Assembly: GCF_017348835.2 (NCBI RefSeq)
Contig: NZ_CP071375.1
Length of the DNA: 64,000 nucleotides
Source of the DNA: Escherichia coli
GTDB lineage: Bacteria > Pseudomonadota > Gammaproteobacteria > Enterobacterales > Enterobacteriaceae
Reading direction: 5' to 3' (one strand)
In this document: one piece after another, positions 54,756-56,445 of the stretch
How positions within the stretch are numbered: position 1 is the stretch's first letter
Layout: each line of letters starts with the position of its first letter
The notes under the pieces: generated by a model
The model's database searches: none
Seen by the model: the letters and a program-made list of their open reading frames with translations, nothing else
Told to the model about the DNA's origin: nothing
Position numbers and translations under genes: made by a program

Positions 54756-55006
54756 CTAGTGATAACCACGCGCGGTCATAAAATCCGTAATCGCTTTTTC
54801 TGCATCAATCAGCACCTGTTCCAGTGGCTGATTGGCATCGATATCAACCAGTTGTGCACCACCAAAGGTTAACTGTGGCGTTATGGCAATCTTCCTCGCC
54901 AGCGATTCCCGTTTATGGTCGGGTTTACGCGCGCAGGCAACTTCAAGGTCAACATTGAGTTTGATGACCAGATCAGGCTTATGGCTCGCCATCCAGTGAA
55001 ACGCTT
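54756..55006 (-). pseudogene. yghT: 5'-truncated gene remnant (C-terminal ~83 codons), probably the yghT homologue, cut by IS629
   Basis: Open frame with proper stop runs without interruption up to the first base of the IS629 left inverted repeat at 55007; yghT identity inferred from K-12 position next to pitB, not from sequence recall. Confidence 0.5.
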
Positions 55007-55060
55007 TGAACCGCCCCGGAAATCCTGGAGACTAAACTCCCTGAGAAAGAGGTAAACAGG

Positions 55061-55387
55061 ATGACTAAAAATACTCGTTTTTCCCCCGAAGTCCGTCAGC
55101 GGGCGATTCGTATGGTTCTGGAAAGTCAGGATGAATATGACTCACAGTGGGCGGCAATTTGTTCCATTGCCCCAAAGATTGGCTGTACGCCGGAGACTCT
55201 GCGTGTCTGGGTTCGCCAGCATGAGCGGGATACCGGGAGTGGTGATGGTGGACTCACCACCGCTGAACGTCAGCGTCTGAAAGAGCTGGAACGTGAAAAT
55301 CGTGAACTGCGCCGCAGTAACGATATCCTTCGCCAGGCTTCCGCTTATTTTGCGAAGGCGGAGTTCGACCGCCTCTGGAAAAAATAA
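55061..55387 (+). CDS. IS629 transposase OrfA (HTH)
   Basis: 108 aa; overlaps orfB by one base near an A-run (candidate -1 frameshift region). Confidence 0.88.
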
Positions 55388-56274
55388 TGCCACTGCTGGA
55401 TAAGCTGCGTGAGCAGTACGGGGTCGGACCGGTATGCAGCGAACTGCATATTGCCCCGTCAACGTATTACCATTGTCAGCAACAGCGACATCATCCGGAT
55501 AAACGCAGTGCCCGTGCGCAGCACGATGACTGGCTGAAGAAAGAGATACAGCGCGTATACGATGAAAATCACCAGGTATACGGTGTGCGTAAAGTCTGGC
55601 GTCAGTTGTTACGGGAAGGTATCAGAGTGGCCAGATGCACTGTGGCACGTCTCATGGCAGTTATGGGACTTGCCGGTGTTCTCCGGGGTAAAAAGGTCCG
55701 CACTACCGTCAGCCGGAAAGCCGTTGCCGCATGCGACCGCGTAAACCGTCAGTTCGTGGCAGAACGTCCAGACCAGTTGTGGGTGGCTGATTTTACCTGG
55801 GTAAGCACATGGCAGGGCTTCGTTTATGTGGCGTTCATCATTGATGTGTTCGCCGGATACATCGTGGGATGGCAGGTCTCATCATCCATGGAAACAACAT
55901 TCGTGCTGGATGCACTGGAGCAGGCGTTGTGGGCCCGTCGGCCGTCCGGCACAATCCATCACAGTGATAAAGGTTCTCAGTATGTATCGCTGGCCTACAC
56001 GCAGCGGCTTAAGGAAGCCGGATTACTGGCATCAACAGGGAGTACTGGCGACTCGTATGACAACGCGATGGCTGAGAGCATCAATGGTCTTTACAAAGCG
56101 GAGGTAATACACCGTAAGAGCTGGAAAAACCGGACAGAAGTGGAACTGGCCACACTAACGTGGGTGGACTGGTATAACAATCGACGATTGCTGGAAAGGC
56201 TGGGCCATATTCCTCCGGCAGAAGCAGAAAAAGCTTATTATGCTTCCATCGGAAATAATGATCTGGCAGCCTGA
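55387..56274 (+). CDS. IS629 transposase OrfB (DDE integrase core)
   Basis: 295 aa; rve-type DDE domain (..WVADFTWV.., ..HSDKGSQY.., ..DNAMAESING..). Confidence 0.88.
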   Translation: MPLLDKLREQYGVGPVCSELHIAPSTYYHCQQQRHHPDKRSARAQHDDWLKKEIQRVYDENHQVYGVRKVWRQLLREGIRVARCTVARLMAVMGLAGVLRGKKVRTTVSRKAVAACDRVNRQFVAERPDQLWVADFTWVSTWQGFVYVAFIIDVFAGYIVGWQVSSSMETTFVLDALEQALWARRPSGTIHHSDKGSQYVSLAYTQRLKEAGLLASTGSTGDSYDNAMAESINGLYKAEVIHRKSWKNRTEVELATLTWVDWYNNRRLLERLGHIPPAEAEKAYYASIGNNDLAA

Positions 56275-56445
56275 GTTCACAGATAAAACACTCTCCAGGA
56301 AACCCGGGGCGGTTCAGTATAATGCCACTGCATAACTGATTCCCATTTCGTAGAGGCTGTTAACTCTGTATCAAAGTCCTGACAAAGGACTGTATCAAGT
56401 TTCTCTACTGAAACAGCTATGCAATAGACGGAAGAATTTAACATT

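Follow-up and report, generated by a model that had tools for sequence, protein, structure and literature searches.

Deletions linked to IS629 have been documented at sizes between a few bp and over 40 kb, and IS629 deletions exceeding 40 kb that are linked to the IS-excision enhancer IEE are on record (PMC9943667; bioRxiv 10.1101/2023.06.07.543989). In EHEC O157, IS629-associated genomic deletions were described by Ooka 2009 and Kusumoto 2011, as summarised in PMC9943667 and bioRxiv 10.1101/2023.06.07.543989. Chromosomal inversions of Shigella flexneri 5b have been attributed to IS629 and IS1 (PMC1550401), and in E. coli O157:H7 large rearrangements arise by recombination between inverted prophages or islands (PMC8743559).

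The locus described here has features of each of these. We analysed a stretch of 64,000 nucleotides of Escherichia coli DNA (the window; NCBI RefSeq assembly GCF_017348835.2, contig NZ_CP071375.1), which matches the reverse strand of the E. coli PE164 chromosome (NZ_CP114128.1; pig, Nanjing) at 100% identity, and compared it with 5,426 complete E. coli genomes. It is probable, in our judgement, that the IS629 in this window marks the joint of a ~55-kb deletion in a chromosome whose pheV-to-ileX segment is inverted. Positions are those of the window unless given as positions of a strain record.

The IS629 element and its two flanks

A complete IS629 (IS3 family, IS3 group; 55007–56316, plus strand) was recognised from its inverted repeats, its length of 1310 bp and its match to a named copy. 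Its ~25-bp imperfect terminal inverted repeats begin TGAACCGCCCC; the left one (IRL, 55007–55031) abuts a remnant of yghT and the right one (IRR, 56292–56316) abuts islet DNA, and over their 25 nt the two are 88% complementary. Both overlapping reading frames listed on the plus strand are open, orfA with 108 aa (55061–55387) and orfB with 295 aa (55387–56274), and PGAP annotates them as a single IS3-family transposase CDS (55061–56274) fused through a programmed -1 frameshift. The corresponding downstream frameshift-stimulating ALIL pseudoknot (RF01497) was found by Rfam at 55342–55458 on the same strand, with 120 bits for a gathering score of 50. Over the full 1310 bp the element is 99.5% identical to the copy in phage BP-4795, which its depositors named and annotated as OrfA/OrfB of IS629. 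An earlier reading made from the sequence alone had called the element complete, and we agree.

To its left, the element cuts into yghT (54756–55006, minus strand), of which the last 251 of 693 bp remain; they are identical to K-12 yghT at 247 of 251 positions and correspond to residues 148–230, or 36% of the gene. The sequence-only reading had proposed the 3' two-fifths of what was probably yghT, with its 5' part absent from the far side of the element, and both points proved correct, the right flank being island DNA. The remnant closes a backbone block (1–55006) carrying ribB ... hyb, yghU, gss, pitB and yghT', which by gene order and GC skew is inverted relative to nfeF-aer-ebg and which runs past the window start to ileX, a toxin module and a tRNA-Phe repeat at about record position 763,780.

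On the right lies the retained integrase-proximal end of the ileX island (56317–60418), assigned from gene content and genome comparison. It encodes a 534-aa hypothetical protein (hyp534; 56446–58050, plus strand), a second hypothetical protein (58133–58729, minus strand) and a tyrosine integrase (58859–60175, minus strand), and ends with a displaced 47-nt 3' half of ileX (60372–60418, plus strand) between the integrase and nfeF. In 427 genomes this island DNA runs unbroken across the insertion point, which we call site B and which reads ...TTCAGCATC GTA TAATGCC when uninterrupted (elsewhere written ...CAGCATC GTA TAATGCC). This continuity supports the earlier identification of the right flank as islet DNA rather than yghT, and the 47-nt fragment of tRNA-Ile2 supports the ileX label then given to the islet.

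ARAGORN reported no tRNA in the window. The 47-nt fragment is the 3' half of tRNA-Ile2 (ileX), and the complete gene (PE164 record 751,715–751,790) stands at the island's other end. The T-arm of that complete gene differs from the 47-nt half by compensating changes (GTTGGTTCAAACCCAAC vs GCTGGTTCAAGTCCAGC), so the island supplies its own 3' half. The integrase and the complete tRNA gene lie at opposite ends of this island, whereas in the pheV islands of the compared strains they adjoin. The same integrase, island and toxin module are found at ileY in O157:H16 strain 98-3133 (record 4,494,000–4,529,000), between ypjC and ygaQ/glaH, so the element appears to use either copy of the tRNA-Ile2 gene.

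The junction reads ...aacgCTT-IS629-GTAtaatgcc, with CTT at 55004–55006 and GTA, the first triplet of the island side of site B, at 56317–56319 (both plus strand). As the earlier reading had noted, these flanks are not a direct repeat: we found no target duplication of 3 bp (CTT vs GTA) or of 4 bp (GCTT vs GTAT). Misplaced ends hiding a duplication would be the obvious objection, and here a related copy in WP7-S17-ESBL-01 (54 mismatches) serves as a positive control, since it has the same termini and a clean AAC-IS-AAC duplication; that copy interrupts the islet integrase at a site that is uninterrupted in the window. A missing duplication is nevertheless weak evidence by itself, since of 47 IS629 sites in O157:H7 genomes no more than 21 have one (Rump et al., PMC3271280). 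The case for a rearrangement joint rests instead on comparative data. In IS-free genomes the two flanks are not contiguous, as they would be around a simple insertion, and even in CD45, the strain with the most similar arrangement, they lie 54.8 kb apart.

A missing block and the two joints

Site B and the yghT site, the two breakpoints of PE164, enclose a single uninterrupted block of 54,751 bp in CD45. It holds 15.4 kb of island interior, a phe repeat, yghD, the gsp type II secretion genes, pppA and sslE, followed by the glc operon, yghO, a lipid/LPS-like cluster, yghS and the 5' part of yghT. By this comparison PE164 appears to have the CD45 arrangement with the block replaced by IS629. Absence from PE164 was assessed by counting matching places in the chromosome record at megablast sensitivity: a base query ranks PE164 first with one place, and an extra place means that an added piece is present. 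Three pieces were queried directly and the remaining block content was read from CD45 as a proxy. The 5' part of yghT together with yghS had no match in the PE164 chromosome record, the DNA flanking IS629 on the right in F2_81 added no place in that chromosome (places = 1), and neither did the 1 kb left of site B (32 places with it and 32 without). The PE164 locus keeps the element and one of its original flanks and lacks the DNA beyond the other end, which is the pattern of an adjacent deletion.

The left joint, between yghT' and IS629, occurs in two of the 5,426 genomes, PE164 and F2_81 (pig, Australia). The 407 bp to the left of the element are identical in both, so the CTT joint is common to the two strains by descent. 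The right joint, IS629-GTA-islet, occurs in PE164 alone among the same 5,426, and no IS629 was found at site B in the 427 islet-carrying genomes. In F2_81, whose gene order is collinear with that of K-12, the IRR side of the yghT copy is joined to the interior of the pheV island, with the flank CAG; the comparison suggests that F2_81 has undergone its own, different deletion from the same (IRR) end of the same IS629.

The sequence-only reading took the element for a recombination junction rather than a simple insertion, and the non-contiguous flanks together with the tested DNA unmatched in the chromosome bear this out. It went further in proposing deletion or inversion between two IS629 copies, and here only the rearrangement itself stands, no reciprocal copy having been found. 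Chimeric queries at 80% coverage or more for the two reciprocal joints, yghT 5'...AAG/IRR and island left side...GTA/IRL, returned 0 of 5,426 genomes each, so the search it had proposed, for a second IS629 flanked by the missing yghT 5' portion and the missing part of the island, was negative. A deletion would leave no reciprocal product, which would account for this negative result. An inversion between two IS629 copies would have left an inverted second copy with exchanged flanks at the other end of the inverted block, where PE164 has a tRNA-Phe repeat, with the nearest IS629 in direct orientation.

One way to lose the block with no second IS629 is a one-ended transposase event, in which the IRR of the yghT copy would attack site B in cis, with loss of what lay between them. 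In both PE164 and F2_81 the DNA beyond the IRR of this one copy is gone and the joint at the IRL is identical, site B is without IS629 in every other genome, and IS629-adjacent deletions of more than 40 kb have been reported, especially with IEE (PMC9943667). We nevertheless hold this account, taken alone, to be improbable. The Sakai iee gene is unmatched in the PE164 and F2_81 chromosomes (places = 1), which led us to reject IEE as the driver of the deletions; copy-out-paste-in transposition would be expected to need additional factors before it could yield such deletions (bioRxiv 10.1101/2023.06.07.543989); and 14 clustered sequence differences indicate exchange with other IS629 copies.

At the yghT joint that PE164 and F2_81 have in common, these 14 positions separate their two copies between identical flanks, and they fall into blocks at IS629 positions 141–517 (window 55147–55523) and 1127–1151 (window 56133–56157). 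Two other copies combine the blocks of variable sites differently. Clustered differences between identical flanks indicate exchange, by gene conversion or crossing-over, among IS629 copies. We abandoned an attempt to map a crossover point from these polymorphisms, as the first 140 bp hold no site distinguishing the PE164 and F2_81 copies and none could be assigned.

PE164 has about 32 places matching a query that spans the IS629 joint, which corresponds to roughly 30 IS629 copies. One of these (PE164 record 767,658–768,967) is on the same strand as the window copy and differs from it by 4 mismatches; it is likewise without a duplication (ATG on one side, CTC on the other), truncates an integrase-like gene after 34 codons and lies inside a ~9-kb ICE remnant (TraG-N...TraI-integrase) that has pheV at one end and a 50-nt tRNA-Phe repeat at the other. 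We considered this copy as an inversion partner and rejected it for its direct orientation, its ATG/CTC flanks and its place within the ICE remnant. In F2_81, an IS629 in the island abuts a truncated IS2 orfB (record 678,524–679,243) and also has no duplication (CAG and AAG). A split CAG duplication or flank exchange in that strain, suggested by CAG to the left of the island copy and to the right of the yghT copy, was rejected because IS2, present on the left as a truncated orfB, is not carried on in the right flank. All four IS629 copies examined in PE164 and F2_81 are rearrangement joints.

Orientation of the pheV-ileX segment

In K-12, yghT (3.13 Mb) and nfeF (yqjH; 3.21 Mb), the neighbour of the ileX island in PE164, are about 82 kb apart. 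In PE164 the two flanks of the IS629 have the opposite relative orientation to that in K-12, and the intervening block is reversed relative to both of its sides. From the nfeF side the PE164 order is ebgA...aer-nfeR-nfeF-'ileX-int-hyp-hyp534-IS629-yghT'-pitB-gss-yghU-hyb...rpoD-mug-ileX, and on the pheV side it is ileX-DUF4942-DUF957-DUF5983'-IS1-hyp-toxin-phe repeat-ICE remnant-pheV-yqgA-speC. The ileX and pheV genes are on opposite strands in PE164 and on the same strand in F2_81. In the orientation of the PE164 record, GC skew is -0.038 throughout the 80-kb yghT'...mug backbone, with +0.035 and +0.07 in its flanks, and in F2_81 every one of these segments has a positive value (+0.023 to +0.049). 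GC skew is independent support for the inversion in PE164.

Two other strains, CD45 and FORC 064, have the backbone flipped as in PE164 with no IS629 at the joints, the block from the pheV to the ileX island measuring roughly 100–140 kb. Their first joint reads nfeF-int...island...DUF4942-[phe 22 nt]-CTAATTC-yghD... and their second reads ...mug-ileX-DUF4942..IS1-toxin-AATTCATATC arm-[phe 22 nt]-pheV PAI; the CTAATTC flank is also found after the phe repeat at the yghD joint of CD45, and the pheV pathogenicity island of that strain contains LEE. In 98-3133 the island stands unsplit at ileY, as int...DUF4942-[22-nt tRNA-Phe 3' repeat]-arm-toxin...IS1-DUF5983'-DUF957-DUF4942-tRNA-Ile, and in the inverted strains the flanks of the 22-nt repeat are swapped between the two island ends. 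Given this exchange, the inversion most plausibly arose by recombination between inverted island end-modules, each comprising DUF5983-DUF957-DUF4942 and the 22-nt tRNA-Phe 3' repeat. By coordinates only, strain C7 is inverted and the near-identical C3 is not. The flip of the pheV-ileX block appears to be recurrent and possibly reversible. The 22-nt repeats themselves lie at locus-internal position 22681 in 98-3133 and at 21222, 27329, 21606 and 14689.

The far joint of PE164 differs from these in that the attR of the ICE remnant (a 50-nt phe repeat) is fused directly to the toxin arm, and the pheV-island end-module present in CD45 and FORC 064 is missing. PE164 shares the toxin module adjoining ileX with other strains. 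This module encodes a 2,979-aa protein with a TcdA/TcdB-glycosyltransferase domain (PE164 record 754,554–763,490), which may resemble lifA/efa1; in CD45 the gene lies beside LEE at pheV, and it is present in 89 of 5,426 genomes, with most matches on plasmids. Nearby, an IS1 (PE164 record 753,305–754,072) abuts a truncated DUF5983 gene without a 9-bp duplication (TTTCCGTG... vs CTACGGCGA). We considered whether an IS1-mediated deletion had erased the reciprocal joint of PE164, and rejected this on finding the same IS1/DUF5983' junction in 98-3133, FORC 064 and CD45, which marks it as an old rearrangement carried with the toxin module.

A bolder reading would make the whole segment (~90–140 kb, with rpoD, dnaG, parC/E and hyb) a recurrent, reversible inversion polymorphism, flipped not by RecA working on the longer modules but by an island integrase at the inverted 22-nt tRNA-Phe att repeats; the IS629 deletions of PE164 and F2_81 would then each remove one repeat and lock the orientation. 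We put this forward as a speculation with a small chance of being right.

The inversion might instead, much as the sequence-only reading proposed, have come first through IS629 itself, by homologous recombination between inverted copies at yghT and at site B, with a later deletion between direct tRNA-Phe repeats that removed the reciprocal joint, yghD...yghT 5' and the island interior. These two events would yield exactly the two joints observed. PE164 offers ~30 IS629 places, its joint copy is mosaic relative to the F2_81 counterpart, its far joint, a phe repeat abutting the ICE attR, is the expected remnant of a phe x phe excision, and IS629-bounded inversions have been reported in Shigella flexneri (PMC1550401). 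However, this account needs an IS629 at site B, which was otherwise seen in 0 of 427 islet genomes; the same inversion occurs with no IS629 at the joints in CD45, FORC 064 and apparently C7; and the reciprocal joint is gone everywhere searched. We regard it as unlikely, though the least so of the alternatives weighed here. Because the inversion occurs without IS629 in CD45 and FORC 064, IS629 is most simply held responsible for the ~55-kb deletion only.

A joint of this kind could also be produced in assembly, if wrong flanks were connected across a 1.3-kb repeat present ~30 times, and the right-hand joint is indeed seen in one assembly only, that of a strain in which IS629 is highly repeated. 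The left joint, however, is found independently in the F2_81 assembly, no IS629 lies at the other end of the inverted block, where the sequence agrees with real joints of CD45 and FORC 064, the tested pieces of the ~55 kb are unmatched in the chromosome record rather than placed elsewhere in it, and that record is a finished circular chromosome. An artefact is very improbable.

Order of events and comparison with known systems

From the observed junctions, absences and orientation, and from the contiguity of the block in CD45, we infer the order of events and the mechanism of the deletion, for which we favour the following history. IS629 would first have inserted into yghT, with the target CTT, in the common ancestor of PE164 and F2_81. 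The PE164 line would then have been in the flipped pheV-ileX orientation (~90–140 kb block), which other strains probably reach by recombination between inverted island end-modules, and the interior of the ileX island would have come to lie beside yghD...yghS-yghT. Everything from the IRR end of the IS629 to site B, ~55 kb, would then have been lost, either by RecA-dependent recombination with a second, directly oriented and transient IS629 at site B or by a one-ended, transposase-driven adjacent deletion. The clustered differences between the PE164 and F2_81 copies are compatible with recombination between copies, as the first option would have it, and are not decisive; the second draws on the finding of IS629 at site B in no genome but PE164. 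F2_81, in the unflipped orientation, would separately have lost DNA beyond the IRR. With either deletion one of the inverted island modules would have gone, so that PE164 and F2_81 may each now be fixed in orientation.

Against this favoured history, no genome in the set represents an intermediate, neither yghT::IS629 with a CTT duplication nor IS629 at site B. Since F2_81, the closest relative, is not inverted, the inversion would have arisen, or flipped back, after the two strains split. The lack of the pheV-island end-module at the far joint of PE164 calls for an extra step, which may have been island excision or recombination at short phe repeats. With PE164 as the single genome to go by, the order of inversion and deletion is tentative.

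As read from CD45, the PE164 deletion would have cost ~35 backbone genes, including the glycolate operon and the genes for the SslE mucinase and a beta-type type II secretion system, along with half to most of an island. The importance of this is small beyond strain-level genome bookkeeping, and the recurrent pheV-ileX flip is of modest interest for chromosome architecture. The locus illustrates how rearrangements can be dated and put in order by joining comparative genomics to the lack of a target duplication. It also shows that what looks like an "IS-mediated inversion" against K-12 may be a deletion superimposed on an inversion that islands brought about, which is a caution for automated structural-variant calls.

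An IS-associated deletion over an island-mediated inversion is an ordinary and well-known kind of event, and IS629 is a documented driver of deletions and polymorphism. PE164 resembles the EHEC O157 deletions in the element involved, the intact IS at the joint, the loss of DNA at one end, the size of tens of kb and the missing target duplication. It differs from them in being a porcine strain with no Sakai-type iee detected in its chromosome, and in that its deleted block spans an island-backbone joint existing only in the inverted chromosome. Like the IS-bounded inversions of S. flexneri 5b, the PE164 element separates regions that are ~82 kb apart and oppositely oriented in K-12, but the far end of its inverted block is a tRNA-Phe att repeat rather than IS629. 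Finally, the pheV-ileX flip recalls the O157:H7 rearrangements (PMC8743559) in occurring in several strains with joints inside homologous island end-modules; the repeats involved there are lambdoid prophages, whereas those at this locus are the distal modules of tRNA islands together with the 22-nt tRNA-Phe repeat.
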